Assembly: GCA_018238545.1 (NCBI GenBank)
Contig: JABCTC010000003.1
Coordinates: 1 to 64,000, forward strand
Length of the DNA: 64,000 nucleotides
Reading direction: 5' to 3'
Source: Candidatus Heimdallarchaeota archaeon
GTDB lineage: Archaea; Asgardarchaeota; Heimdallarchaeia; Heimdallarchaeales; Heimdallarchaeaceae
The position numbers and the translations under genes were made by a program. Positions 36,104 through 58,947 of this stretch are shown piece by piece; position 1 is the first letter of the stretch; each line of letters opens with the position of its first letter. Under the pieces are notes generated by a model. That model saw only the letters and a list, made by a program, of their open reading frames with translations. It did no database searches and was not told the origin of the DNA.

Positions 36104-39100
36104 ATGCAAGGTAAACTCCGTACAATTATAGGTATTTTAATTTTAACAATTACAGTAAGTTCATCAGTCGCAATGGGTGTATTGCTTCCTCTTCACTCTT
36201 CGAATTTAATTACCCAAATATATACAGATATGGATAATAATGCTCGGTTGACAGAGAGTGATTTCTTTCCAAATGACGGAAGCGGTAATTACTCTGAATG
36301 GATGTATACAGGTGTAGGAACAAACACTTCAAAATTTGTTGATCAAGCAGTTTTTGAATTCTTCAATATTACAGATAGAGAGGCTTACCTCGACTACAAT
36401 ACGAAAATAGCGTACTTCTTTGTGCAAGGTGAACTAGTTTTTGACATTATTATTAATAAAACAGTTTTAGAATACGACGTAGAATCTGACTATGTAGTTT
36501 ATGCTTATAGAAAACAATTTCTCTTCAATGCAGAAGACTCATCCCTAACTGGTGATGAAACTGTTTTGAATTTCAACTATCTTTGGCCATATTATATTGA
36601 ACATTTTGGAAATGGATCAGAATATGGTTTTCAGAGTTTTATAGCATCAAAACTAATTCAAGAAGAATTAATCGGTTTTAATACATCACTAGGTTATACC
36701 TTTGATGAATTAGCTTATGCAGTTATGAATAGAACATATGCTGAAGAAGAAGGTATAGTGGATTTAGGCATCTATTTGCCCCACAATTGGTTAAGTGTAA
36801 GACCTGCTTTTCCAGATCTTAACTTTGATATTGCAACAAGTTATCAGATATTGTATGATGCTATATATAATGGTCATGATTACTCATTACTAACAGGCGA
36901 AGCTGGTTCAACTAAATACTTCCTTGATTTAGTAAGAGGTCTTGATTTTGAAGGACAATATGATTTGATTGTTGATGTTGAACAACTTTTAACAGATATT
37001 TATGGAATTGATACTCCACAAGAACAAGAATACGCAAAATCCCTTGCAGCCTATATGAATTATTTACTAGGAAAGCCTTCATTGGATTGGCTTTATGAAA
37101 ATCAAATATCATATGTTTGTGAAAGAACTGCTATGGATTGGGTATTAGGTATTGAAGATCCTCTTATGGATGGAAAAAGATTCCCCTTAGTTAACAATCA
37201 ATCATTATCAAGTTCAAGTATTGATTGGGATTTAGATTTGTATTATGCAGAAAAACTTGGATCATATGATGTAAATGATGTTGGTAAAATCATAGCAATA
37301 GCTAATATTCCAGGGTATTATTATTCTCAATCTATGGAACTATTCGTGGAAGATAACCTAGCTTACGTGATAGAAGGTGGAACTGATATTAAAATAGTTA
37401 ATATGACAGATCCCTTATTCAAAGCAATCGGTCAATTCGGAGACTTCATTCTTGACACTGCTCTTCCCAATCCTTCATACGATCCTATAGGCGTTGATGG
37501 TTATATTTCAAACCTTGTTGTAGTTGATTCATATATTTATGCAGTAGAAGGTGACACTGGATTAGAAATACTCAATGCAACCGACCCAAGTGCTATTTAC
37601 GAACTTGACCAGTGGGATAATTTTGGGAATGCTGATATGCGAGATGTTGATAACGCCGTTTTTGGAACATCAACTCCTTATGATGCTCTTATAATAGCAA
37701 ATGGACAACATGGTCTAACTTATGCCAGATTGCAAACTGAAGATAGAACAGTAAGTACAGTTGTTAATTTTGCAGGGTTATCTGGAGAGGCTTATTCCGT
37801 AGATGAATACAATGATTACGCTTTCGTAGGTTTAGGAATTGATGGAATTGATGTAGTTAGTATAGATGGTCTCGACGGTACAATGGCGCTTGAATATCAT
37901 TATGATTCAATCAATTTTGCAACATTCAATAACATTCTAGATGTTAAAGCAGAAAATGGATTCCTATACGTTCTTGATGCAGTTGAGGGATTGTTAATAT
38001 TCGATATATTGTTTAATGGTACTCTTATTGAACAAGGTCAATTTGCATATGGACCTACGGAAACACCTTACATTGATGTTTATGTTGAAGGAACTAATGC
38101 CTATTTAGCACAAGGAGATTATGGTCTTGTTGTAGTAGATATCTCTAACAAACTCAGTCCTTCTGAAAATGCCAGATTTGACGGTGCTGAACACAAAGGT
38201 TTAGCATACAGCGTATATGTTGATGGAAGTGATGTTTATCTTTCAGATTATTCTCAAGGACTGGTTCATCTCAATTATGTCTCTAACACCTTTTCAATTG
38301 CTAATAAAGATCAGTTACACACTTTCGTTGAAGCTTGGCAAAGCGAGAACAATATTCAATTCAATAATTGGCTTCTAAGTGATCCTGAATTCGAAGCAAA
38401 TGAAACATATGATTCATTCGGATTATACACATTTGTTGAAAGAGGTTTCAGACAACAATGGACAGAGTATTTCCTTAGACCTTACATCTTCTCCTCATTA
38501 ACAGATACAGCTCTGTTTGTTGATAAAACAGTATTAGTTTATACCGCACAAGCTCAGATACCATATCTACAAAATGAGGAAAACAGCCTGTATTGGATGC
38601 AAGACGCTAACTTCCTCAATGAAAGTTTCCAACATGCAGGAAGATGGAGCATCCTTCATGGGGTAGAATATCAAGCAACAGATTTTGATATTACTCATTC
38701 CTTCCCTGGTACATTACGAGATGAATTCCACATGCAATTCATGTTAGTAGAACCTAAAACAGGGTCTATAATTGAACGCAAAGATAGAGTACAATATAAT
38801 ACACGAGCTATAGACTATAAAGAGGCTTATTCACTTCTCAATAAGACTACATTCGGATACGAGTGGGAAGTCCCTGGGGCTAATTACGTCAATTTACCTG
38901 TTGATCACATCTACAAGACATGGCATGTTACATATCCAGCTTTACCTGGAGATATGGCAACACTCTTCTGGCAAGAAGATGTCTACAAAGCTACAAATAA
39001 TTTCTATGAAGTGTTAAGAGAAGACTTCTTAGATAAAATCGACAATGCTGATGCTCTGAGAACATTAGGTGCTTTTGGTTCAATGTTCAGTGTTGCCGCT

Positions 39101-39163
39101 GGTTTTATTGTAGCTTCTGTTGTGCTCAATTTCATGAAGAAGAGAGCAGAAATTCCAAAATAA
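36104..39163 (+). CDS. CD36/SR-B-like two-TM protein with an inserted LVIVD-repeat beta-propeller
   Basis: N- and C-terminal TM; FEFFNITD..QG, RTAMDWVLGIEDPL, HMQFMLVEPKTG..DRVQYN and LFWQE match CD36 motifs; central GLVVVDISN-type repeats. Confidence 0.72.
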   Translation: MQGKLRTIIGILILTITVSSSVAMGVLLPLHSSNLITQIYTDMDNNARLTESDFFPNDGSGNYSEWMYTGVGTNTSKFVDQAVFEFFNITDREAYLDYNTKIAYFFVQGELVFDIIINKTVLEYDVESDYVVYAYRKQFLFNAEDSSLTGDETVLNFNYLWPYYIEHFGNGSEYGFQSFIASKLIQEELIGFNTSLGYTFDELAYAVMNRTYAEEEGIVDLGIYLPHNWLSVRPAFPDLNFDIATSYQILYDAIYNGHDYSLLTGEAGSTKYFLDLVRGLDFEGQYDLIVDVEQLLTDIYGIDTPQEQEYAKSLAAYMNYLLGKPSLDWLYENQISYVCERTAMDWVLGIEDPLMDGKRFPLVNNQSLSSSSIDWDLDLYYAEKLGSYDVNDVGKIIAIANIPGYYYSQSMELFVEDNLAYVIEGGTDIKIVNMTDPLFKAIGQFGDFILDTALPNPSYDPIGVDGYISNLVVVDSYIYAVEGDTGLEILNATDPSAIYELDQWDNFGNADMRDVDNAVFGTSTPYDALIIANGQHGLTYARLQTEDRTVSTVVNFAGLSGEAYSVDEYNDYAFVGLGIDGIDVVSIDGLDGTMALEYHYDSINFATFNNILDVKAENGFLYVLDAVEGLLIFDILFNGTLIEQGQFAYGPTETPYIDVYVEGTNAYLAQGDYGLVVVDISNKLSPSENARFDGAEHKGLAYSVYVDGSDVYLSDYSQGLVHLNYVSNTFSIANKDQLHTFVEAWQSENNIQFNNWLLSDPEFEANETYDSFGLYTFVERGFRQQWTEYFLRPYIFSSLTDTALFVDKTVLVYTAQAQIPYLQNEENSLYWMQDANFLNESFQHAGRWSILHGVEYQATDFDITHSFPGTLRDEFHMQFMLVEPKTGSIIERKDRVQYNTRAIDYKEAYSLLNKTTFGYEWEVPGANYVNLPVDHIYKTWHVTYPALPGDMATLFWQEDVYKATNNFYEVLREDFLDKIDNADALRTLGAFGSMFSVAAGFIVASVVLNFMKKRAEIPK

Positions 39164-39354: not shown

Positions 39355-42300
39355 TTGTCTGATGATACAAGAGCAAAGAAAATGTCAGCAGCTGCATTCT
39401 TCAATGATAACAAAGCAATAGCTGGCTTTGGAAATTCAATGAGGGCAGTATTTACGAGTATCAGAGAACTTGTAGAAAATGGTTTGGATGCAGCAGAAAT
39501 AAGGGGAGTCAACCCTGTTATTTCAGTTGACTTACGTAAGCTTTCTAGCAGAGAAATTAACGATCTGCTAGATGTTACACAATATAAAAAGTTGGAAAAG
39601 CATCTTGATTTTCTGCAGTTAACTTGTAGAGATAACGGTGTTGGGGTTCCAAGTAATCAAATAGCAGATTTGTTCGGACGAGTATTAACCGGAACTAAAT
39701 ACGGTGTGATTCAGACTCGTGGTCGATTTGGTCTTGGAGCAAAAATGTGTTTACTTCACTCTATGTCTTCAGTTGATCTACCTGCTCGTATCAAAAGTCG
39801 TTATTTTATGGATGATATGACTCATGAACTACATTTAATGATAGATCTTGAAAGAAATCAACCTATCGTCATGGAACAAAGAGAATATTTATCTGGAGAT
39901 CCAAATGCGCTAGAAGAACCGGGTGTTGAGATTAGCATAACCTTTACAGGTGCTTGGAGATTAGCAAAGAATAGCGTTAAAGAATACTTCAGACAGTTAG
40001 CAATTATTACTCCTTATGCAAGTTTTGATATAAAAGTTCCTGGTGATAAGGAAGGAGAATATGAGGAATTACATTATGTGAATGTGGTAGATGATATGCC
40101 TTCCCCTCCCCAGCACGTTAAAATTCATCCTTGGGGTTGTGATATCACTCAATTCAAATCAGAATTATCTTCAACTAAAGCTAAAAAAATGAAGAAATTT
40201 CTTGCAGAACATTTTATGGGAGTAACAGAAGAAATTGCTGAAGATTTCTTCCAGTTATTGGAAATCGACCCAAACAAATCACCTTCGAATATAACTTCAA
40301 AAGAAATTCGAAGAATAGTTCACGAAGGTTTTGTTAAAGCTTATCAAGAAGCCAAGGATGTTAAGAGGAAACGAGATAGGATATTTCAGTTTGACCCACC
40401 TAGAGGAGATGCTCTTTCTCCATTAGGTGCAGGAAGATTAAGGAAAGGTCTCGAGAAAGAATTACAACCAAAATTTGTTGAAGCGGTTACAAGACCTCCT
40501 AAGGCTTATTCTGGTCATCCTTTCGCAATTGAAGCAACAATGGGTTATGGTGGGGGAGTAAATGAAGCAGCTCAAGCTAAAGGAACTACCGTCCACGACA
40601 ATAAGATAATTTACAGGTATGCTAATAGAATCCCTCTTATTTTTGGGGCTGGAAATGATGTTATCACTCAAGTCGTTTCCTCTATTCGGTGGAACGATTA
40701 TGGACTAACTAGACAGTCTGACCCTCTTGCCATCGCTGTTTCGTTAGTCAGTACAAAAATACCTTTCCCTGAGACAAGTAAAGAATATATTTCTAATGTT
40801 CCTGAAATTGAAGAAGAAATAAGATTAGCTCTGATGCAATTAGGAAGGAGACTTAAAACCTTTTTGAGCAGAGCAAAACGAAGAAAGAGAGAACATGCTC
40901 GATTATCAAGATTTGTTAAATCAGCACCAGTAATAATTGAAAATCTCACTCAAATTCTTGAAGATGAGAACCTTAAATTTACCGATTTCCGACTAGAAAC
41001 AGATCGGATTTCTGCAGCTCTCGCTCATGGTACTCCGAGGAAGGTTCGCCTTTATATGCCAATTGGAAAGCGGTTATTCGGAGCAAATATTTGGTGCCCA
41101 AATAATATTCAAACTACATTAAAGAATAACAATGTTGAGTCAGTTGCAGAATTTTTACTCAAAGATTCAAAAGAATTAGTTACAATCCTTCAATTAACAG
41201 AATCTCAAGTTTACGACATAAAATTAAGAACCATTTCTGAATTGGATAGAGACAACTTGAGTCCAAATTTTGACACAAAGACCTTAGTATCTCGTCTTGT
41301 TGAAAGAAGGTTCTCCTCCGAAGGTGAAAGAAAATTCATTTCCCTAAAAGATGCATTATTTAGGCGATGGATACAAAATGTTTACCACTATTTAGCAACG
41401 GATTTCGAAAAATTACGTAATGTCTCCGGAATGCTTGAGAAATTTTTTGAAACTAAAAAAGACGAATTACTTAATGATTATTTAGCTAAAGGAGCTAAAA
41501 CAAGTAAAAATACCATATTAACAATAGACAAAGCTATTGCTACTTACGCTAAAGCATCAGATTTAAAGAAAGAACAACTTTACCCTCCTTTTAAATATTT
41601 AAAATCTGAAACTGACAATGTTCTTGGAGAAGATTTATCGATAGAAGAATTTCTTTACCAGACTGTACAACCCACATCTATCAACTATCATCCAGAAATA
41701 ACTCGAACACTTATCGAGTATCTGAAAATTGTATTTACCCACATCAAAAACAAATTCCCTGCTTTCGCAACAACCAGTATAACAAAAATGCAACCTGATT
41801 GGACAGACGGTTATACAAAAAACGCTTTCCACAGAAGAAAGATAAAAACTGTTGGTGATTTTCTAAACCATTCTACTGATGATCTTATCGACATAAAAGA
41901 ACTGGAAAGAATAATGTATGAACAATACATTGAACTGATCACATTAAATACCAAATCTGTTCCTTTGAATGATTTCTCTTTTGTTGAGATTCAACAGCTA
42001 AAAGAAGAAGAAAACCGTATTAAGAGAGTTTTGGCTAAACACGGAATAAAAACCCTTGCTCAGTTCTTAAGTTATCCCTCTGAATCGATTTTACTTAAGA
42101 AGTTTGATACTTTAAGTGCTCTTCTGCTCAAGGAATCAAAATTCAAATTATTTACAAATTTACACGATACTAATAGAATTATTAATCAATCTTACATCAA
42201 AGTTATTCCTAAAAATGTTGAAACAGAATTAGTGAAAAATCAAATATTTACAACTTCTACCTTTTTAGCCAAATCTTCTGTAATTTTGAAGAAAATGGGC

Positions 42301-51300: not shown

Positions 51301-52059
51301 ATGAAACTTTCGCAGAAAGATCAAATTATTCTGAAAGAAACACTTACCTACTTAACAACCGATGATGTGGGACGATTGGAACAAGATAACATCACATCTA
51401 TCCAACAATTATTGTTCCTAACAAAGGAAAACAAAACCAGTTCTTCACTCCAACGAAGTAATGTAAAGAAATTCATTCAATTACTTAGTATGCCTTTAAG
51501 TACAATAGACATACAAGAAACAGTTATTAAACAGCTGGAAGTACTCGGCATTAAATTAGTAAAAGATTTTGTTGTTTATCCAGCAGAACCTATGGCTGGC
51601 AAAGTAGACATAAGTTATGTAATGATAAAAAGAATTAAGGGAAGACTTCCTTTGGTTACAAAAAAGAAAGTAAAACAAACTGCCAAAACTTCGACCTTAA
51701 AGAAACCAACAGCTAAAAAATCTGCTACAACTAAGGGAGCTACTCCCGCTAAAAAGCGTTCTTCAACAAAGTCTAAGACCACAAAGAAAACTATAGCTCC
51801 GAAGAAATCAGCAAAAACTCAACAAAAAGCTAAACCAAAGGCTAAACCAAAGGCTAAACCAAAGGCTAAACCAAAGGCTAAACCAAAGGCTAAACCAAAG
51901 GCTAAACCAAAGGCTAAACCAAAGGCTAAACCAAAACCGAAATCCACTAAACAAATGACTTTGATGGATATTAAACCTACTTCCACAAAGAAACCATCTT
52001 CAACTTCAAAAACGAGAAAAAGCTCAAAATCCACTACTAAAAAAGGTGAAAAATCATGA
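39355..52059 (+). CDS. top6B: DNA topoisomerase VI subunit B with about 3,600-aa extension of HhH-like repeats and basic tail (4234 aa)
   Basis: GHKL motifs RELVENGLDA, DNGVG, RGRFGLG; transducer RYANRIPL and STKIPF; one uninterrupted ORF; repeats such as PIEKLDLAKSVTKSLVEAGIVTIDHL. Confidence 0.92.
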   Translation: MSDDTRAKKMSAAAFFNDNKAIAGFGNSMRAVFTSIRELVENGLDAAEIRGVNPVISVDLRKLSSREINDLLDVTQYKKLEKHLDFLQLTCRDNGVGVPSNQIADLFGRVLTGTKYGVIQTRGRFGLGAKMCLLHSMSSVDLPARIKSRYFMDDMTHELHLMIDLERNQPIVMEQREYLSGDPNALEEPGVEISITFTGAWRLAKNSVKEYFRQLAIITPYASFDIKVPGDKEGEYEELHYVNVVDDMPSPPQHVKIHPWGCDITQFKSELSSTKAKKMKKFLAEHFMGVTEEIAEDFFQLLEIDPNKSPSNITSKEIRRIVHEGFVKAYQEAKDVKRKRDRIFQFDPPRGDALSPLGAGRLRKGLEKELQPKFVEAVTRPPKAYSGHPFAIEATMGYGGGVNEAAQAKGTTVHDNKIIYRYANRIPLIFGAGNDVITQVVSSIRWNDYGLTRQSDPLAIAVSLVSTKIPFPETSKEYISNVPEIEEEIRLALMQLGRRLKTFLSRAKRRKREHARLSRFVKSAPVIIENLTQILEDENLKFTDFRLETDRISAALAHGTPRKVRLYMPIGKRLFGANIWCPNNIQTTLKNNNVESVAEFLLKDSKELVTILQLTESQVYDIKLRTISELDRDNLSPNFDTKTLVSRLVERRFSSEGERKFISLKDALFRRWIQNVYHYLATDFEKLRNVSGMLEKFFETKKDELLNDYLAKGAKTSKNTILTIDKAIATYAKASDLKKEQLYPPFKYLKSETDNVLGEDLSIEEFLYQTVQPTSINYHPEITRTLIEYLKIVFTHIKNKFPAFATTSITKMQPDWTDGYTKNAFHRRKIKTVGDFLNHSTDDLIDIKELERIMYEQYIELITLNTKSVPLNDFSFVEIQQLKEEENRIKRVLAKHGIKTLAQFLSYPSESILLKKFDTLSALLLKESKFKLFTNLHDTNRIINQSYIKVIPKNVETELVKNQIFTTSTFLAKSSVILKKMGMKKKDIEKAKKELGTPLQNWVDHDEILKKCGIVVLEELFFNDASEYNLTTEESKKYTENIIFLRTPLVFVLPELRSSSYLLTEIGINNIGRFLIWSNTELSDILYLSVNEIKALKKKIAFQKQIQSKEELKKDLVLFSRHYPNLVKYFGNETPSIQDLYYAYQSENFSLNTGFWKKLYKLSELSQQEAVDLVHLYPKNFKDIETVKDALLRLKSRNVETIRQFMELQPEIIESKLSNSKERKVALDLYDKILFRRFEGEQELHKQILLLSEYDELQRNFGSPISRIPELTLEELEKFRSHDILAVHQIFDYTVDEIATLLGRDKGSVQHFMESFTLLRKGTPFFEKADRNRYKSLVSFEFEDLERFSSIEIQSLIQAGYASVDQIFYLTHPLTFSSSILNWNVVDKFRKLLRSPLTLVTWEKSVKLKSFDEVKNKEVEVVDIQISTLTTSQLTVLQNQGISRIIDLLVSEPETLSESLNISLDEAKMLQKDIRIIDTGTDLADLDIFKSEIVDQLEENNILTLEDLYFSTTKSKWRVKEVPWDIIMSFKSVLNLPLAHLSDMLDEDIIVALEGANVKTLLGFILTTPESLMNKTGIPDERFETIKRGLDISDIFSYFSLPSYFLPNLTFQQTEILQENGIKSVAEFVNSSPQKINKLIKVTAKQFREITTALTTQNLQALYDEKGIFAFETKLFDKMEQRQLGRDSIFEFDRFQTIQEIYYTLNRDFYSNNQNLWGKVSAIQKVLLLPLHIFTEISEYALEIMSQNSIDFVYQLLFILDADITDPLLFRTVSTYSSKIIEMRAFHYFSKLPASVYNSSYFKKILKDTDNKSLSDVITDEKIIKDLSAKDKQYLYENYNLTLIRSILELPLRITPYFTRIKKVRREEYKNTKIGDVFDIDLEEHSALSSFYSRLLEENSFNKLISQLTIPISSMGLPRELALKLSKSSIGTLLAFYSTPEKQVSEISGFSQKNIREIKDELKYSNIVSIRVSQAHKIKPSSFASEKQIFDLMGRSISDIESLFYSAEHLGISKCLPIENYKKIKEILSGSIRFIGFLSFDEIRRLEYHNINSIIDFALLSKKELFTITQNPIYKEFHVLDLISFDELSEKRIQAAIPLSLCPSIEEDYLDKIKEIGINSIQDFISRMPEIRESHPHLVKLDIFREVQMYLSSVAYIGLPNESVQKLIYSGVGDILSFITEDPSTISLILGISEKQVEKYSKLAVPSNLVTEVDNKGVLLTEFSALSKGRRNSLLKSGKETVQDLFSSRYQAYSQSNISDVLMSEFIESCNVSLYRIEEIEPEIKAKLSKSEITRIIDLLCSTDAELKKALDGKLPKEFKQIRKGQFTLTKGIPLILNEPLQDIIRELNIEPSNKKVEDMFGFVPEFLLQFTESERIEKDKNLAFLEQIVSFLSLNILSLPLFNTTTKLILWNRGIRHVIELLSTNMNTIDGIPFQVISEVRSFQKEFSLTRSMSETLSPYIDDVLILPAKKQAKFQNYGLTNALLFVDFIPHPIFSFTASEQSILRIVSNNMFKPIAWLSSDMSFKIEDMNLLIQNRAINILSALLLLSDQNDTKVLETLSNKYYKSISTYLNSSILQFSAPEWALQLTDTKIITDSNSLKILKKDNISYLDEFLTLESKFLNNPNLVAEILPKLLSLKSLPISSISDLSPSNIQKLKRSRINNVYEFLVFPAPLLSNLLSISVENVNAIKSSIDLSSLEKTAKLTGLDLELFPELSQDSRTILQRRGCVSLNQASKMDLDLIPLLSEDKAILQNLIAMLFTPTTLIGKILKLTKNEIDELLVQNVCTYADLLELPQKTWPAKIRKSLSDKDSDPTYLIKNLQNLEKFGVPIEKLDLAKSVTKSLVEAGIVTIDHLYYLPIAYVSARSKVKQHILEEIKKKLSYNINFLQDISLTTLSVCYSKDSFTIISCLIYWNGLSKDVRTDLEGSLDSIKLIEETSFIEPLTPTETKLKSIGIFSLRSFILSPQIKKEAGLTTKLLPSLLANIRFLNLDPKQSYRLKKTGFTTVADLLLNTSKTISVKSKLGKNAIDEVINNIKIDNLTSLIKSMEREHLHDAFYLNSNDKAFLKSIGVYSLADLNEYTVFDWFVSKQKIQKIKKKINSLLDTNILYYPGITSKQYAEVVEQFFMKDIFTIKDLMISTTVEQSSDLIEFLTIFSTNKPKIQSQYLTSLSFLKGIEAKDLFKIDVKMEKSATINDLIIALYKNSAELTKKGDDVLKQISYPISISSKLNLDEVNILLSKNILSYGDVLTKPSGYWVAFTPVKLKKKLLEILSTITSKTISNDSSKGVQLSNMKIFDANLKKQLTSNFKTLDEVAHAIRIGDSRILKPLERKITKVLSTPISLLKLPKISIKSWKRLLSTASTLEEFYLLTDQELVKIFSSTKEEIVKLKNNLGPDNIVLPPRIKENKIFTSSDVKELSDNSISNYIQIFDKSAEKADLSTSLKDKIAFYKEFDVKQLDENLEETILLKDFVILESYADSLELSRKQKESVKNLSSLLLSRGTYLSKIFDIDSNKDKSGLLNTTIEYFLLIEKYQPKIYSKIIESLPGNISSQFNSLLSYLNRSPILLSGPNLKNINKIVKLPYENVKDLLLLSKEKLVQEIDDTAVQRNIRGLTLSILKSLNSKLTSIPKEFLTAYELNQLKKENIYSFEEALVFNRKSTSKKSKTWLLSEKVRKISTINTLSLSSYLPSSKIQERLLKLKISNVYELVYYCQNTEKEEDLSLCQTVIQSVSSINIEEIEIKERKRFAKFFNDPDILSYLRSQDIRTFGPLVHYLEQLEDETITPEIEKILSVMRFPISVLSENKKLVQKLESEGYNQVIDLLLPAKIQNSLKSNITENQRKVLASLINMFYQEIYQTILKNHYPVSKLTLIDDILQKELIKAGYATVAHLKSPDIIIADTSKLNLQQISRIVRLFDASTYYLSEMLKDYPQSAFVLYSNGINTLWDIFLTGSKEISKITGISVRQVNSYLSTINPQAMKLSQKDQIILKETLTYLTTDDVGRLEQDNITSIQQLLFLTKENKTSSSLQRSNVKKFIQLLSMPLSTIDIQETVIKQLEVLGIKLVKDFVVYPAEPMAGKVDISYVMIKRIKGRLPLVTKKKVKQTAKTSTLKKPTAKKSATTKGATPAKKRSSTKSKTTKKTIAPKKSAKTQQKAKPKAKPKAKPKAKPKAKPKAKPKAKPKAKPKAKPKPKSTKQMTLMDIKPTSTKKPSSTSKTRKSSKSTTKKGEKS
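51829..51936 (+). repeat. Coding 12-bp tandem repeat (gctaaaccaaag)x9 encoding (AKPK)9
   Basis: 8 perfect units plus 1 with a single mismatch. Confidence 0.97.
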
Positions 52060-53465
52060 GTTCAGATTGCAAATTCATTATTAGTAATTCAACAGTTTTA
52101 CCTGCTATTGAGAGAACTGCTTCTTTTGACAAGGATATTCTAGTTCGAGAGATATACAGTTGGGCCAGAGAAACATTTGACCTCAAACGAGGGTCATATG
52201 TACTATTTTTAAGAAGCTTCAAGAAATGGCACAAACTTGAGCCTACAAGAAAATTATCTAGATACAATCTACAAAAAGATACCATGAGTATTAGTGTAAA
52301 AAACACAGTTTCAATCGACAAACTAAAAATCGTTAGAGAAGAATTGAAACATCTAACTGAATACTTGATGCCTTTCGGTGTTACTCACGTAGCAACTAAA
52401 AATTCTCAAGAAACAAACAATCTTCTTGTAGAATATTCTTTAGATTTCCTAAATCAAGCAATGTTATCACCTAATGATGCATCTTTTCAGATTCCATCTA
52501 GAGCTGGTACAAATGTAGGTTTTGATGAGGATCAAGAATTAGTTCTTATTGGTCGTCAAATGATTGATAGACAATTTAGAAATTTAGCTTCAGTTAGTTC
52601 TGTCGAACAAATGACCATTGTTATGAAACTTATTCATGATATTCTATCCAGAGATATTCACAGTACTAAAAGAGATATATTTTACATGAATGTAAATGCA
52701 TTTGATAAACAGTCTGTCTCTGATTCTCTCATAGAAGATGTTGGCGCAATGTTACAGGTTACTCGTTCATCTTTGAATATTAGTGCTTCTTCTAAAGGTA
52801 TTGTTGTTGGGAGGATTAGTTTCAAAGAAAAAGGAGATCTCATAAATTGCCGTGCAATAGGGGCTGGCAAAGCTATTTCCCCTAATATTGATGATATAGA
52901 AAACATGGAAACTGATGCAGAGATGTGTTTAGTTATTGAGAAGGATGCTGTCTTCAATAGGCTAGCTGAGGATCAATTCTATGATTATGTCCCAAGTATC
53001 CTTGTAACAGCAAAAGGTCAACCAGATATAGCTACAAGACAATTTTTGAAGAAGATAAACGATGATCTCAATCTACCTATATTTGCTGTAATGGATGCTG
53101 ATCCTTATGGGTTCGAAATTATGAGAGTATATAGTGTAGGGAGCAAAGCATTGAGTTTTGAATCAAGTCATTTAGCTGTTCCCAGCATTAAATGGTTAGG
53201 TTTACTACCTAGTGATCTCGCTCCTGAAAGTGGATTTGATATTCCGAGAAGTGCTTTAATTAAAATGACTTCCAAAGATCTTCATCGATCTAAACTGATG
53301 CTAGATGAGGAATTTGTTAAAAGAAAGCCAAAATGGAAAGAACAACTAGAAATACAAATAGCAACTGGTTTAAAAGCTGAAATACAGGCTCTTAACGCAA
53401 GAGATCCACAATATATTACCAATTTTTATCTTCCACAAAAAATCGAGGCTGGAGATTTTATCTAA
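52056..53465 (+). CDS. top6A: DNA topoisomerase VI subunit A with N-terminal ubiquitin-like domain
   Basis: KRDIFY (catalytic Tyr), TOPRIM IEKDAVF and DADPYG, KAEIQAL; N-terminal LEPTRKLSRYNLQKD; ATGA overlap with top6B and an AGGTGA SD. Confidence 0.93.
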   Translation: MSSDCKFIISNSTVLPAIERTASFDKDILVREIYSWARETFDLKRGSYVLFLRSFKKWHKLEPTRKLSRYNLQKDTMSISVKNTVSIDKLKIVREELKHLTEYLMPFGVTHVATKNSQETNNLLVEYSLDFLNQAMLSPNDASFQIPSRAGTNVGFDEDQELVLIGRQMIDRQFRNLASVSSVEQMTIVMKLIHDILSRDIHSTKRDIFYMNVNAFDKQSVSDSLIEDVGAMLQVTRSSLNISASSKGIVVGRISFKEKGDLINCRAIGAGKAISPNIDDIENMETDAEMCLVIEKDAVFNRLAEDQFYDYVPSILVTAKGQPDIATRQFLKKINDDLNLPIFAVMDADPYGFEIMRVYSVGSKALSFESSHLAVPSIKWLGLLPSDLAPESGFDIPRSALIKMTSKDLHRSKLMLDEEFVKRKPKWKEQLEIQIATGLKAEIQALNARDPQYITNFYLPQKIEAGDFI

Positions 53466-53525: not shown

Positions 53526-54032
53526 TTATCCCTTTAGAAGTACAATCTCAATTGTGGAAACTGTTTTTGGACCGTATCCTTCTATATCGCTTGGTAATTC
53601 TTCAGATCCTATAACCACTTTATCTATTACTACACTATCTTGTAGAAATTTTCTGCGAGCAATTTCAGCAACATCAACTGCTTTAGAGATTTGTCTCCCG
53701 CGGGCTTGAATTGCGCATTTATCGCGTTTATTTAATATAGTAACTGCAACTAAAACATAACTAATTGTTGGTTTTTTTCCAATGTAAATAATATGACTCT
53801 GCTCTCTGTATTCAGTTTTAGGTTTAGGTTTAGGGGTTTCTTTGGGAGCTTCCTCTTTGACTTCCTCTCTGACTTCCTCTCTGACTTCCTCTCTGACTTC
53901 CTCTCTGACTTCCTCTCTGACTTCCTCTCTGACTTCCTCTTTGACTTCCTCTTTGACTTCCTCTTTGACTTCCTCTTTGACTTCCTCTTTGACTTCCTCT
54001 TTGACTTCTTCCTTAGCTACTTTCTTACTCAT
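53526..54032 (-). CDS. albA: Alba DNA/RNA-binding protein with N-terminal acidic repeat extension
   Basis: IYIGKKP..SYV, ARGRQISKAVDVAE, VSTIEIVL; AGGTGA SD before ATG 54032. Confidence 0.93.
   Translation of the reverse strand: MSKKVAKEEVKEEVKEEVKEEVKEEVKEEVKEEVREEVREEVREEVREEVREEVREEVKEEAPKETPKPKPKTEYREQSHIIYIGKKPTISYVLVAVTILNKRDKCAIQARGRQISKAVDVAEIARRKFLQDSVVIDKVVIGSEELPSDIEGYGPKTVSTIEIVLLKG
53850..54005 (-). repeat. Coding 12-bp tandem repeat x13 encoding (VKEE)6(VREE)6(VKEE)
   Basis: ttcctct(t/c)tgac units on the + strand. Confidence 0.97.
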
Positions 54033-54204
54033 GAACATCACCTATTTTTCTTTTGTCTGTCAAATGTTTCAGTATAAGTAGTATCAAAAAGGTATTGCAA
54101 CGTTAAAAATATTTCCTATTACATTTGTGACAGAAAAGAACAGATAAATACATTAAAGTAGACTACATTACGGGTTTGATATCACCAAAGGATGTTTAAT
54201 AGAT

Positions 54205-56001
54205 TTGAAGCCTCAACGTTTACTAATTGATTCTTTAATAATTGTGCTAAGCATATCATTGCTTACTGCCCTTTCTACTACATTTAGGTGGTTTTTACCC
54301 CTCTATGAAAGTTACATTATAATCTTATATATTTTCGTTGGGATAGGTTTTATCATCTATGGGTGGTTATTAAGACGATGGTTTATTAAGAAGAATCTTG
54401 ATGAGAAAGATGGTTCATTAATACATTTACTGAAGATAATTCTACCAGTATTTAGTTTAATATTGATTTTTACCTTAGTAATTGGTTTATCAAGTCTATC
54501 AGAGATTATTCTCCTTTCAATGATATCTAGTTATTTGCTAAGTATATTTCAAATCTTCATAATATCGATTCTAGTTGGGATTTTCGCGTTTACTTTTATC
54601 GAGAATAATTTAGGAATTCTTCTTTTCAAAGAACCGGTTGCAGAACAAGAAACCGAACTGGGTTTTGGTTTAATGAGAAAACAGCTAAAAAATCTCATGG
54701 ACAAACAATGGAAATATGGTATGATTATTCTTTGGCTTTCTATTATGATTGCAAACATGCTGGTTTTTTTTGTATATCCATCTATACCTTCAAGTGATGT
54801 GGCATTTGGACTACAAAGTCTACATTTTAGTTTTCCAAATATTGCGTTTACATTTAATCCAGAAACAGGCTTTTATCAAGAATTTTTTTCTAGTGTTGCT
54901 CTCCCCTCATCAGCATTGCTAAACTGGAAGTTAATTCAATCTCTCATCAGTCTTACTTTTCTAGGCTTGCTTGTAATGCTAATATATCTACCTCATTCAA
55001 AGCTCCTAATGAACAAAAAGAAGGTTGATGAAAATACAAACAATATAGAGAAAATTCAAGAAAGTGATGAGAAAATAGTTGCTGTTGTAACTTCTTTAAC
55101 CGCTCCTGAAATTATTGAGCACTTTGATGATATAGACCCTGAAATTCTTGCTTATAAAATTCTGTCTCCATTGTCTACAAAAGAATACTTGCCTTCAAAT
55201 ATAATAAATCCTAAACCAAGGAGAAAGTTCTCTAAACTAATAAACAGAATGAAGAATAGTGATGTTATCCCAGTTATGAATTTAGCGAGCTTAAATCTTG
55301 TTGTTGCGGTTTATATAGTTAGTTTATTTCAAAGATTGGGAATAATAACAATTATTGTAAATGATCTGTATCAAGATTCATATGCTCAATTAACACATCT
55401 TTACTGGGCTGGTTTGGCCGAAGAAATATCTTATCGTTTTCTTATTTTTGGTGTCCCATTGTTTATCATCTATGGAGTAGTTTTTCTATTTATTTTCATT
55501 TTAAAGAAGACATTAATCAAAGAGAAGAAAGATGAAGATCTTTCAAGATTTGCATTATGGGTTAAGTCTAGAACACCTATAAACCCCTTACTTTATTTGA
55601 GTGGAAGATGGAAAAAACTGAGGATTCTTGACATTATGTTACTATTATTATCGTCATTTGGTTTTGGTTATGCTCACTACCAGTTTAGCCCAGATTACTG
55701 GGGTACATGGAAAATATTTCAAGCTGGTGTAGCTGGACTTATTTTTGGCTATGCTTTCTGCAAATACGGATTACACGCTGCAATAATTTTACATACAATT
55801 AATGATTTTGTCATAGGAATGATTGTAACTCCTAATCTTGGACTTTTGTTAGATGGTGGTATTCTATTTATGGTTATTATTTTTGCTGGAACGTTAGTTT
55901 TACTAAGTTTAGTGGCAAAGGCACTAACAGTATCTTTTAAATTCATAAATACAACATTAAAAAGAACTCAACCAATTACTGATACCTCTAAACAAAAGTG
56001 A
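54205..56001 (+). CDS. CPBP (Rce1/Abi-type) intramembrane glutamic protease with extra N-terminal TM region
   Basis: EEISYR, FGYAH and HTIND motifs. Confidence 0.85.
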   Translation: MKPQRLLIDSLIIVLSISLLTALSTTFRWFLPLYESYIIILYIFVGIGFIIYGWLLRRWFIKKNLDEKDGSLIHLLKIILPVFSLILIFTLVIGLSSLSEIILLSMISSYLLSIFQIFIISILVGIFAFTFIENNLGILLFKEPVAEQETELGFGLMRKQLKNLMDKQWKYGMIILWLSIMIANMLVFFVYPSIPSSDVAFGLQSLHFSFPNIAFTFNPETGFYQEFFSSVALPSSALLNWKLIQSLISLTFLGLLVMLIYLPHSKLLMNKKKVDENTNNIEKIQESDEKIVAVVTSLTAPEIIEHFDDIDPEILAYKILSPLSTKEYLPSNIINPKPRRKFSKLINRMKNSDVIPVMNLASLNLVVAVYIVSLFQRLGIITIIVNDLYQDSYAQLTHLYWAGLAEEISYRFLIFGVPLFIIYGVVFLFIFILKKTLIKEKKDEDLSRFALWVKSRTPINPLLYLSGRWKKLRILDIMLLLLSSFGFGYAHYQFSPDYWGTWKIFQAGVAGLIFGYAFCKYGLHAAIILHTINDFVIGMIVTPNLGLLLDGGILFMVIIFAGTLVLLSLVAKALTVSFKFINTTLKRTQPITDTSKQK

Positions 56002-56591
56002 AGAACATGAGCTATGGACAAAAATTATTCCTTAAAGTAATTTTAGCTGGAGAAGCGGAAGTAGGAAAAACAAGTTTAAGACGTTCATATCTTGGAGAAG
56101 GATTTGTCAAAAACCATCTTCAAACAATCGGTGCTGATTTTGCTTCATTACCAAAAACAATCAAAGATTATAACGTTCTTTTTCAGATCTGGGACGTAGC
56201 AGGACAAGATATTTTTGAAAACGTCAGGATGATGTACTATAAGGGGACTCTTGGAGCTCTAATGGTATTTGATGCTACAAAGATTGCTACATTTAGAACA
56301 TTAGATCGTTGGATAAAAGAGCTTGAGAAAGGTACAGAAAGAGGGATTGTTCCATTCTTTATACTTGGTAATAAGATGGATTTAGTTACTTCTGCAAAAA
56401 AAACCAAGCTAAAAGCAGAAGTCACTAAGTATATAGCTGCATTAAACAAGAAGTATTCTGATAAGGGATTCACCGTAGAGTATATTGAAACCTCTGCAAA
56501 AACAGGTGAGAATGTCCATTCAGCTTTTGAGCAATTAGGTGTTAAAATTATAGATTACATTCAGCATAGAAAGAAGATGAGGGGGAAATAA
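55998..56591 (+). CDS. Rab-like small GTPase
   Basis: GEAEVGKT, TIGADF, FQIWDVAGQ, YYKG, NKMD, ETSAK. Confidence 0.93.
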   Translation: MKNMSYGQKLFLKVILAGEAEVGKTSLRRSYLGEGFVKNHLQTIGADFASLPKTIKDYNVLFQIWDVAGQDIFENVRMMYYKGTLGALMVFDATKIATFRTLDRWIKELEKGTERGIVPFFILGNKMDLVTSAKKTKLKAEVTKYIAALNKKYSDKGFTVEYIETSAKTGENVHSAFEQLGVKIIDYIQHRKKMRGK

Positions 56592-56592
56592 A

Positions 56593-58947
56593 TTGAGTTT
56601 AGAGGAAATTAGAAACCTCATAATAGCTGATAAAAGCAATGAAATTAGACTTAATAACATCAAAGTCTATCAGCATTTAATAAAATTACTTAAGGATACG
56701 GAAGATTATATTAGAAAAAAAACTACTTCAATTATATTTAATTCTGATTTTGTTCCAACAGAGAAAATTATTGAGGAATATCTAAGTGATCCTGACCCCT
56801 TACTTAAGGACATAATTGTCAACAAGTTTCATTTTTTTGTTCCAATTTTATCGAAATATCTTGTTCAAGATAGAAGTTTCAAACCAATTTCAGAAATTAT
56901 CAATTCAATGAAAACTAAAACTCTGCACGATGCAATAGCGAAAGCCTACAAAATTACACCCGTGCTAGCATCTTTAACAGAGCTATCAATTAGAATATGT
57001 CATTCTTCACTAGCTCAACAAGAAGCAACAGTTATTTCTTTTCATTTAATTACTGAACATGCAAAAGAGGTTAAAAGAATACTTATTTTCGGATTCAAGC
57101 AAGTAGAACCAATCTATGCAGAACTTGTTTTGCTAACAGTCACTTTGTTTCCAGAATTAGCCACTTTAATAGAAAAACAAATACGCGATGTTGTAGTGAA
57201 ATCTAATTCAGAGGAACAAATAAAATATGCATCAATTGCTCTTATGAACCTGCAAGATCCTAAAAATGCAGACGTGCTAATCACAAGACTCGCAAATAAA
57301 GAAGATTCTCTTGACACAAAATTATCGATTATAGAATCACTTGGAAACTTAGGTAATCAAAAAGCTAGTCAAGTATTAATTAATCAATTCTCTAAAAATG
57401 ATACTCTTGCATATTATTCAACTCGATCTCTTGCAATGCTTGGAGATAGTGTTCTACCTTTGCTCATAAAAGAGCTAGAGCATGATAGCAAAGTTCCTTA
57501 CATTATTGAAACTATGAAGCGCATTGGTGATACTAGTTACGATTATTTAATGTACGCTCTCAATAAAGGAAAAGGTAACGTTCGAAAAAATGCAGCTCAA
57601 TGTCTTACACTTGTCATGAGCCAGAAGTATGGATATGAAGGTGCAATACGCTTACTTACTACTCAGCTCGCAGGAAAAAACACAGCAATTGTGGAATCAG
57701 TTACTCAAGCGCTGTTAACCTTAGGTACTCCATCGATTAGGGTGTTAATCGAAGAGTTGGCAGATGATGACCTAAAACTAAGGAAAAATGCAACTGAGGT
57801 TTTACAATATTTTGGTCACAATAATATAGAACTCACATTAGATGGTTTATTGGAAACTGACATTACGCTTGGAGTGAAACTTGGTATTATCCTTTACATG
57901 TATTATCCAAATGATGAAATGCAAAAATTAGGTTATGGTTTTGCTATTACCAAGAACAAGATACGGGATAAAGACGACGTAACATATGAACTGATTTTAA
58001 AAGGTTTGAAGGAACTCGATCCAGATATCCGCGAAAAATCATGTGAATTACTTTATTACTTTGGAACAAAAGCAGTGCCAACACTTTCTTCAGTTTTATC
58101 TGATCCCAACATACATGTTAGACGGAAAGCTGTAGGGTCTCTTCGGAAACTAAAAAATAAACGTGCTCTTATCACCTTAATCAAAGGTGCTAAAGATAAC
58201 GATGATATAATTGCAGAAATATCAACACGAGCACTGGGAGAACTGAAAGATCCTGGCGTGATTGATGTAATAGTTAACAATATGAAGCGTTCAAAAACTT
58301 TAGTCAGGGATGCCGCTGTATATGCCGCAACACAAATAGGTTCCCCTATAGCAAAGAAACTTTCAGCTCAGCTTAACGCGAATAATCAGTACTTAGTTAA
58401 AGCAACGATAACTGCTTTGAGTAAAATGGATTGTAAAACACTGAAAGATATGTTATCTAATTTGCAAAATGCTGATGAACGTTGGTTTTCAAATATGAAG
58501 AAAGTTGTCCAAAAGATGGGTCCTTCAGCTGCCCCTACCCTACAATCTTTGCATAAAAAGGCAAAAAATGAAAAAGCTAACCATCGATTACTCATTTTAC
58601 TTTCACTATGTAAAGATACTACCATAATCCCCAACTTGATTCAATTGATACTTGAAGATAAACAGAAAACTGGTATTGTAGGTCTAAATAATTTTGGAGA
58701 AGATGGATCAGAGAAAATTGCCGAAGTGTTACTAGATGCACCTGCTAAAAACAGAAAATTGTTCGTTGAAAAATCTAAAGGATTAGACGGAGAACTAGCT
58801 GTAGCTTTAGTTTCAGCATTTAAGAAAGAGAAAAAGCTGAAATCTCTTATTAACTCAATGTTGAAAGTTCACAATAGATCAATCAGAAAATACTGTCAAA
58901 CTAAAGAAATGAAACATGAAAATTTCATAGAAAATTACAGAAAATAA
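56593..58947 (+). CDS. HEAT-repeat (alpha-solenoid) protein
   Basis: Repeated VRKNAA, IREKS, VRRKAV and VRDAAV HEAT-like units. Confidence 0.85.
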   Translation: MSLEEIRNLIIADKSNEIRLNNIKVYQHLIKLLKDTEDYIRKKTTSIIFNSDFVPTEKIIEEYLSDPDPLLKDIIVNKFHFFVPILSKYLVQDRSFKPISEIINSMKTKTLHDAIAKAYKITPVLASLTELSIRICHSSLAQQEATVISFHLITEHAKEVKRILIFGFKQVEPIYAELVLLTVTLFPELATLIEKQIRDVVVKSNSEEQIKYASIALMNLQDPKNADVLITRLANKEDSLDTKLSIIESLGNLGNQKASQVLINQFSKNDTLAYYSTRSLAMLGDSVLPLLIKELEHDSKVPYIIETMKRIGDTSYDYLMYALNKGKGNVRKNAAQCLTLVMSQKYGYEGAIRLLTTQLAGKNTAIVESVTQALLTLGTPSIRVLIEELADDDLKLRKNATEVLQYFGHNNIELTLDGLLETDITLGVKLGIILYMYYPNDEMQKLGYGFAITKNKIRDKDDVTYELILKGLKELDPDIREKSCELLYYFGTKAVPTLSSVLSDPNIHVRRKAVGSLRKLKNKRALITLIKGAKDNDDIIAEISTRALGELKDPGVIDVIVNNMKRSKTLVRDAAVYAATQIGSPIAKKLSAQLNANNQYLVKATITALSKMDCKTLKDMLSNLQNADERWFSNMKKVVQKMGPSAAPTLQSLHKKAKNEKANHRLLILLSLCKDTTIIPNLIQLILEDKQKTGIVGLNNFGEDGSEKIAEVLLDAPAKNRKLFVEKSKGLDGELAVALVSAFKKEKKLKSLINSMLKVHNRSIRKYCQTKEMKHENFIENYRK

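Follow-up and report, generated by a model that had tools for sequence, protein, structure and literature searches.

A ubiquitin-fold domain built into the N terminus of topoisomerase VI subunit A in Heimdallarchaeia

We analyzed a 64,000-nucleotide stretch of forward-strand DNA from a Candidatus Heimdallarchaeota archaeon (assembly GCA_018238545.1, contig JABCTC010000003.1, positions 1 to 64,000; the window), in which a giant subunit B of topoisomerase VI (topo VI), Top6B, is followed directly by a subunit A, Top6A, with an integral ubiquitin-like domain (Ubl) at its N terminus (Table 1). Top6A is the subunit that cuts DNA and is the archaeal counterpart of the meiotic protein Spo11. By every sequence feature tested, the open reading frame (ORF) at 52056-53465 is top6A, and it was the single Top6A found in this Heimdallarchaeaceae genome, which is 92% complete. 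Pfam assigned TP6A_N (PF04406) to residues 183-242 (expect value [E] 2e-21) and Toprim (PF21180) to residues 290-463 (E 2e-57), and R206, Y210, E295, D347, D349, and E442, the counterparts of the M. mazei clasp, catalytic tyrosine, and metal ligands, were invariant in 94 Top6A homologs, the nearest of which are named Heimdallarchaeota or Heimdallarchaeaceae. With the canonical archaeal Top6As (S. shibatae 2zbk_A, M. jannaschii 1d3y, and M. mazei 2q2e/9o0g), the protein shares a winged-helix (WH) and Toprim core, these active-site residues, and a top6B-top6A operon, at E 1.6e-54 to 6e-36 and template modeling (TM) scores, relative to the target, of 0.82-0.87. In contrast to these enzymes, its Top6B is several times longer than the core, and Top6A itself has about 100 extra N-terminal residues comprising the Ubl and a helix, alpha1. 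A sequence-only reading of this DNA had estimated about 80 extra residues, which fits the Ubl (residues 1-83) but falls short of the whole extension once alpha1 (about 86-100) is counted.

Residues 1-83 form a genuine integral ubiquitin-fold domain, confirming the fusion that the sequence-only reading had proposed. AlphaFold2 (AF2) modeled the Ubl at a predicted local distance difference test score of 87 with ubiquitin topology, a five-stranded mixed sheet grasping a helix (strands 4-11 and 18-25, helix 30-41, strands 48-54 and 57-60, a short helix, and strand 77-83). The top Foldseek matches to this domain were ubiquitins, with TM scores of about 0.65-0.8, and VIA-align gave Z scores of 11-12.7 against many Ubls. 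When a profile was built from 57 Ubl sequences, its positions 12-76 aligned with PDB entries of monomeric ubiquitin at E 1e-5 to 3e-8, and HHalign of the Ubl family against ubiquitin gave 95%. Pfam ubiquitin was matched by 22 of the 57 family members at E≤0.1 (best, 1.4e-7), and three Borrarchaeum/Sifarchaeum orthologs exceeded the curated PF00240 cut-off of 25.4 bits, at 29-32 bits. A peptide in the extension had also been singled out as a close match to ubiquitin; it is present at residues 60-81, but the closeness holds for the family profile and not for the window copy alone, which resembles ubiquitin weakly (3.7 bits per unit) and in Pfam returned FERM_f0 at E 0.002, failing to reach the PF00240 cut-off. 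The extension is kept in about 120 Top6A homologs of 460-500 amino acids (aa), and the ESM Atlas cluster holding this Top6A (65 members) is automatically named "ubiquitin-like protein." Among 1.84 billion proteins, the top matches to the Ubl profile were polyubiquitins, whose dominance would mask rarer fusions, and in 399 Asgard genomes this profile found short free ubiquitin-like ORFs as well. Because the profile finds both, a ubiquitin-family gene is, on sequence grounds, the likely source of the Ubl. Another Asgard Ubl fusion was observed in Borrarchaeum, where a P-loop ATPase (L163:3572-5314; HerA-like by motifs) ends in a near-copy of an adjacent free Ubl, beside an E1 gene.

The C-terminal diglycine of ubiquitin is missing, as had been noted from the sequence: Gly-Gly was absent from residues 70-110 in 119 of 120 Top6A homologs. 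Strand 5 of the Ubl ends at K82, at about the position of ubiquitin R72, and in the AF2 model runs into helix 88-98. Lacking the diglycine and continuing from strand 5 into alpha1, the Ubl is therefore, by its predicted structure, not a type I conjugatable modifier. It resembles ubiquitin and the free Asgard ubiquitins in fold, detectable sequence similarity, and end point but differs from them in its in-frame fusion, the loss of Gly-Gly, a longer strand 3-4 hairpin (KKW), and a polar residue (S/D/R) at the position equivalent to V70. The alternative label of a UBX-type module did not hold. UBX domains carry an R..FPR-type signature, whose Phe-Pro lies in the loop between strands 3 and 4; the corresponding loop here is R53-S-F-K-K-W58, which has no proline and in which F55 is unconserved, and PF00789 (UBX) had no match anywhere in the genome at E 0.1. 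The sequence-only reading had also raised the possibility of a true start at a downstream Met with the preceding region unconserved. Starts at M77 or M105 were ruled out by an ATG at the same codon in 16 of 16 close relatives checked, by the Shine-Dalgarno (SD)-like site, and by purifying selection on the Ubl, with pN/pS in the nearest relatives of 0.025/0.28 and 0.07/0.70. The top6A ATG at 52056 overlaps the top6B stop. An antisense ORF at 52037-52321 was regarded as a shadow of the real top6A gene.

Table 1. Features of the topo VI locus, in window coordinates
Feature	Position	Strand	Details
Giant Top6B, 4,234 aa	39355..52059	+	GHKL and transducer core (about residues 1-540), helix-hairpin-helix (HhH)/RadA-N-like array, Lys-rich tail
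First Top6B tail modules (about residues 550-700)	41002..41454	+	Strongly conserved in Ubl lineages; candidate Ubl neighbor
SD-like GGTGA (52045-52049) and ATGA start/stop overlap	52045..52059	+	Couples top6A to top6B
top6A ORF, 469 aa	52056-53465	+	Ubl, alpha1, WH/CAP, and Toprim
Integral ubiquitin-type beta-grasp (Top6A residues 1-83), no GG	52056..52304	+	Profile, AF2, Foldseek, HHalign
Helix alpha1 (residues 86-100), joined directly to last Ubl strand	52311..52355	+	AF2 helix 88-98
WH/CAP domain (TP6A_N)	52602..52781	+	Clasp R206 and catalytic Y210 (codon 52683-52685)
Toprim domain	52923..53444	+	E295, D347, D349, E442

Pfam matched the window Top6B to PF09239 at E 5e-54 and, weakly, to HATPase_c (E 0.004). 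Co-occurrence of the Ubl with a long Top6B, which had been suggested as a check, was found at all of the about 40 Ubl-Top6A loci whose upstream DNA could be read, where Top6B is a giant of 2,194-4,305 aa, although at three of them the gene is broken by a frameshift, split, or rearrangement. Sampled Top6A copies that lack the Ubl are partnered by a Top6B of only 543-1,249 aa, and Borrarchaeum holds both pairs side by side, a 564-aa Top6B with a Ubl-less Top6A and a 2,293-aa Top6B with a Ubl-Top6A. Residues 550-700 of the tail contain invariant W, F, L, and P positions in 78 giant Top6Bs. Three further features of these operons were observed. In Borrarchaeum/Sifarchaeum (L109:3365-17627; L111; L112), the two topo VI operons lie in tandem, with a short B-A pair, a 970-aa HEAT-repeat gene, and then the giant B and Ubl-A pair. 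On one closed chromosome (G063:C1; L115 and 2040465), the giant top6B is interrupted near residue 1,424 and its two halves lie 1.7 Mb apart, reflecting either an assembly error or a real rearrangement. A PIP-like QxTL motif, found by eye and a candidate only, occurs near where the Lys-rich tail of Top6B ends (51985 to 52056) and again at the N terminus of Thor-like Top6A.

Using E<1e-200 as the threshold for a full-length match, we found Ubl-Top6A in 66 genomes, spanning six Heimdallarchaeia families (Heimdallarchaeaceae, Kariarchaeaceae-like, and Hodarchaeales) and three Borrarchaeum/Sifarchaeum genomes. A seventh family, taken as Gerdarchaeales, encodes Top6A twice, in copies of 375-417 aa that both lack the Ubl. 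The domain was likewise absent from the sampled Loki, Thor, and other Asgard Top6As, with a short basic tail replacing it in the sampled proteins of other Asgard families, and the Ubl-profile matches listed outside the Ubl-bearing families were mostly short free ubiquitin-like ORFs. In a tree of the C-terminal 366 Top6A residues (49 rows, Ubl excluded), the 23 Ubl-bearing rows fell on one side of a branch with support of 100/99. A single origin of the fusion appears to be the simplest reading of this unrooted, core-only tree, which holds no outgroup or eukaryotes and does not fix the root or the direction of any transfer to Borrarchaeum. HhH arrays are found on Top6B in Heimdall and Gerd lineages and on Top6A in Thor; in Thorarchaeia-like loci (L129-L134), the main Top6A ORFs are 709-951 aa, with N-terminal Lys-rich tails and several RadA-N-like HhH modules, and Top6B is 670-725 aa. 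Canonical Top6A was absent from three near-complete genomes of one family (G002, G003, and G004), with no match at 1e-20 and TP6A_N at about 1e-5.

Neither the ubiquitin system nor gyrase accounts for this distribution. The window genome encodes ubiquitin, E1, E2, and two Cdc48 proteins, including a ubiquitin-E1-UEV-ESCRT locus, and free ubiquitin and E2 were present in 78 of 82 and 82 of 82 Heimdallarchaeia genomes, respectively. Because this count includes Gerd-like genomes (ubiquitin in 11/12, E2 in 12/12) that lack the fusion, possession of a ubiquitin system does not predict the fusion; Loki genomes also encode free ubiquitin and have no Ubl fusion. GyrA was present in 68 of 70 genomes of the six Ubl-bearing Heimdallarchaeia families and in 0 of 12 Gerd-like genomes, but a strict link between the Ubl and gyrase was ruled out by Borrarchaeum, which has the fusion and no GyrA (0/5), and by two Loki-like genomes with GyrA and no fusion. 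A second type II enzyme, either gyrase or another topo VI, is found in every Ubl lineage. Accessory domains have been proposed to localize or specialize topo VI where such a second enzyme exists (PMC9348778, PMC13040014), an idea with which we infer this pattern to be consistent (PMC9348778). The M. mazei Top6B Ig-like C-terminal domain described there is, like the Ubl, an accessory domain near the A/B junction; in contrast, the Ubl has another fold, lies on the other subunit, and is found also in gyrase-less Borrarchaeum. Two gyrase genes were observed in passing: in Hodarchaeales (L114:2372-15220), gyrA lies directly upstream of giant top6B, and a 657-aa ORF, probably gyrB, comes before it in an apparent four-gene operon; the 1,286-aa GyrA of the window genome (G000:C59:5441-8074) carries, after Pfam position 92, an insertion that is probably an intein and that several relatives share.

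Other genes surround the operon. Directly upstream of top6B is a 1,019-aa LVIVD-repeat protein (36104-39163, + strand), and a similar-sized ORF occupies this place in H. endolithica (L113), a likeness of size and position. An Alba gene (53526-54041, - strand), convergent on top6A, encodes an acidic N-terminal four-residue repeat (EVKE/EVRE), and an apparent operon follows at 54205-58947 (+ strand) for a membrane protein, a Ras-family small GTPase (55998-56591), and a 784-aa HEAT-repeat protein.

Conservation within the Ubl is concentrated at N11, L15, a hydrophobic strand at 48-52 with F51, K56-K57-W58, and K82, and F51 is the sole position conserved in at least 90% of 61 sequences. Strand 3 has five consecutive hydrophobic residues family-wide (consensus F-[VIL]-[LVI]-F-[LFY]), and its outer face is therefore hydrophobic in any register. 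HMMER pairs F51 with I44 of ubiquitin. At the L8-I44-V70 patch, which is intact in ubiquitin-receptor ligands of the Rad23/Dsk2 type, L15 and F51 are hydrophobic and the third position is polar, with the register of F51 varying by one between HMMER and HHalign. The AF2 model of full-length Top6A had a predicted TM score (pTM) of 0.85. Since this exceeds 0.82, the share of residues outside the Ubl, the model seems to fix the Ubl relative to the core, which suggests that the domain is held at a fixed position there. Mean-field covariation (236 Top6A rows, effective number 59) was dominated by noise and gave no usable Ubl-core contacts. Prediction of a complex of Top6B 350-780, Top6A 86-469, and Ubl 1-85 scored 0.46, as did a control in which the Top6B chain was replaced, and so speaks neither for nor against contact.

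We favor, with about even confidence, a role for the Ubl as a docking module at the A/B junction of a specialized giant topo VI, ranking it ahead of DNA contact, a Cdc48/proteasome handle, and a passenger domain, in that order. A free Asgard ubiquitin-family gene would have been fused once to the front of a housekeeping Top6A, losing its Gly-Gly, in a lineage that also built a 2,000-4,000-residue HhH tail on Top6B, and the Ubl may now serve as a fixed block for protein-protein docking. The sheet face of the domain (L15, V49, F51, and W58) is probably buried on its own subunit, against alpha1 or the core, and/or on the first HhH modules of the Top6B tail; these conserved modules would begin at the A/B junction, and docking would keep the giant arm in place with respect to the DNA gate. 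The sequence-only reading had likewise suggested docking on the Top6B arm. In solved topo VI, the WH domain of Top6A is bound by a C-terminal hairpin of Top6B, and the G-segment DNA rises in an arch beside the Top6B stalk, close to the A/B junction (PMC13040014); the Ubl is therefore expected near the first tail modules and the DNA flank. This A/B geometry, the co-inheritance with giant Top6B, the hydrophobic strand 3 with F51, the pTM, and the failure of the fusion to track ubiquitin machinery or gyrase all point toward docking. Several results weigh against it. No partner residue for the Ubl could be identified. The Ubl evolves about three times faster than the Top6A core, under selection about threefold weaker, and its identity drops to 11-20% in Hodarchaea. 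HHalign shifts F51 one residue later, to the position of the buried F45 of ubiquitin. Finally, the co-inheritance with giant Top6B represents one evolutionary event in one operon, not independent events, and is therefore not independent proof of contact.

An auxiliary DNA-binding domain, in which the basic strand 3-4 hairpin would touch the bent G-segment flank or the T-segment, is possible but rather unlikely. The proximity of the arching G-segment to the A/B junction would allow such contact, the Ubl has a net charge of +7 here and in close relatives with R53, K56, K57, and K82/R83 conserved, and an RNA-bound ubiquitin fold (SF3A1, 8id2) is among the structural matches. The same N-terminal slot also holds a basic tail in other Asgard Top6As and Lys-rich tails with HhH modules in the Thor-like proteins. 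However, the charge of the Ubl varies from -7 to +14 across the family, its best-conserved residues are hydrophobic, and dozens of HhH modules are already present on the Top6B tail.

Less probable still is the proposal, close to that of the sequence-only reading, that the Ubl imitates ubiquitin from within the enzyme, drawing in Cdc48, PAN/proteasome, or proteins that bind ubiquitin, or taking ubiquitin on K56/K57, so that trapped cleavage complexes are cleared or the enzyme is turned over. The eukaryotic ubiquitin-fusion degradation (UFD) pathway, which acts on uncleavable ubiquitin fusions, provides an analogy. Ubiquitins are the closest non-Top6A relatives of the domain, the L8- and I44-equivalents are hydrophobic, and the conserved K57 aligns with K48 in HMMER. 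Weak Pfam matches to the Npl4 UBD (18/57; best, 8.8e-5) and OTU1 UBXL (3/57), together with the ubiquitin-E1-UEV-ESCRT locus and two Cdc48 proteins of this genome, also favor it. Against these stand the polar V70-equivalent, the missing UBX signature, and the free ubiquitin of Gerd-like and Loki genomes that have no fusion; moreover, a permanent handle on an essential enzyme would need a switch, and we know of no Rpn1/10/13-type receptors in archaeal PAN proteasomes. The least likely reading is that the Ubl is a near-neutral passenger that has no particular partner and is retained chiefly for folding or solubility, since the purifying selection, the conserved surface residues, and the lack of any Ubl loss in the 66 genomes that gave full-length matches outweigh its faster evolution, its absence from most Asgard Top6As, and the fact that eukaryotic Top6A works without a Ubl.

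As a non-cleaved domain of a larger protein, the Ubl resembles the integral type II Ubls of TBCE/TBCB, Rad23/Dsk2, Npl4 (UBD), OTU1 (UBXL), talin (F0), and SF3A1, among which structural Z scores of 10.5-12.7 were tied. Unlike the window Top6A, those proteins are eukaryotic and none is a topoisomerase; the likeness is a structural one. To our knowledge, no Ubl occurs on eukaryotic Top6A or Spo11. In PMC9665070 and PMC12680538, a conserved Asgard Top6A lineage is placed sister to eukaryotes; as the sole genomic copy, the window Top6A presumably belongs to it. It shares with Asgard and eukaryotic Top6As the helix alpha1 (PMC9665070, PMC12680538), which is present also in Ubl-less Asgard Top6As and is an N-terminal Top6A helix common to Asgard archaea and eukaryotes (PMC9665070). 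The word "ubiquitin" does not occur in the main texts of these two papers, and at keyword level Ubl-Top6A is not mentioned in PMC12680538, PMC9665070, PMC11302465, PMC12962969, and PMC13734099. In this incomplete coverage of the literature, we found no earlier description of a ubiquitin fold built into topo VI or Spo11.

The combination of Ubl-Top6A with a giant Top6B represents a previously undescribed topo VI architecture, and it is a case of an archaeal core DNA enzyme that has taken up the ubiquitin fold as an integral domain. Ubl-Top6A is the sole Top6A found in most Heimdallarchaeia, the class that many studies place closest to eukaryotes. It therefore offers a discrete character for the debate on eukaryote origins: eukaryotes arising inside Heimdallarchaeia (for example, as the sister group of Hodarchaeales) would have had to lose or replace both the Ubl and the giant tail, whereas an origin outside Heimdallarchaeia would imply no such loss.

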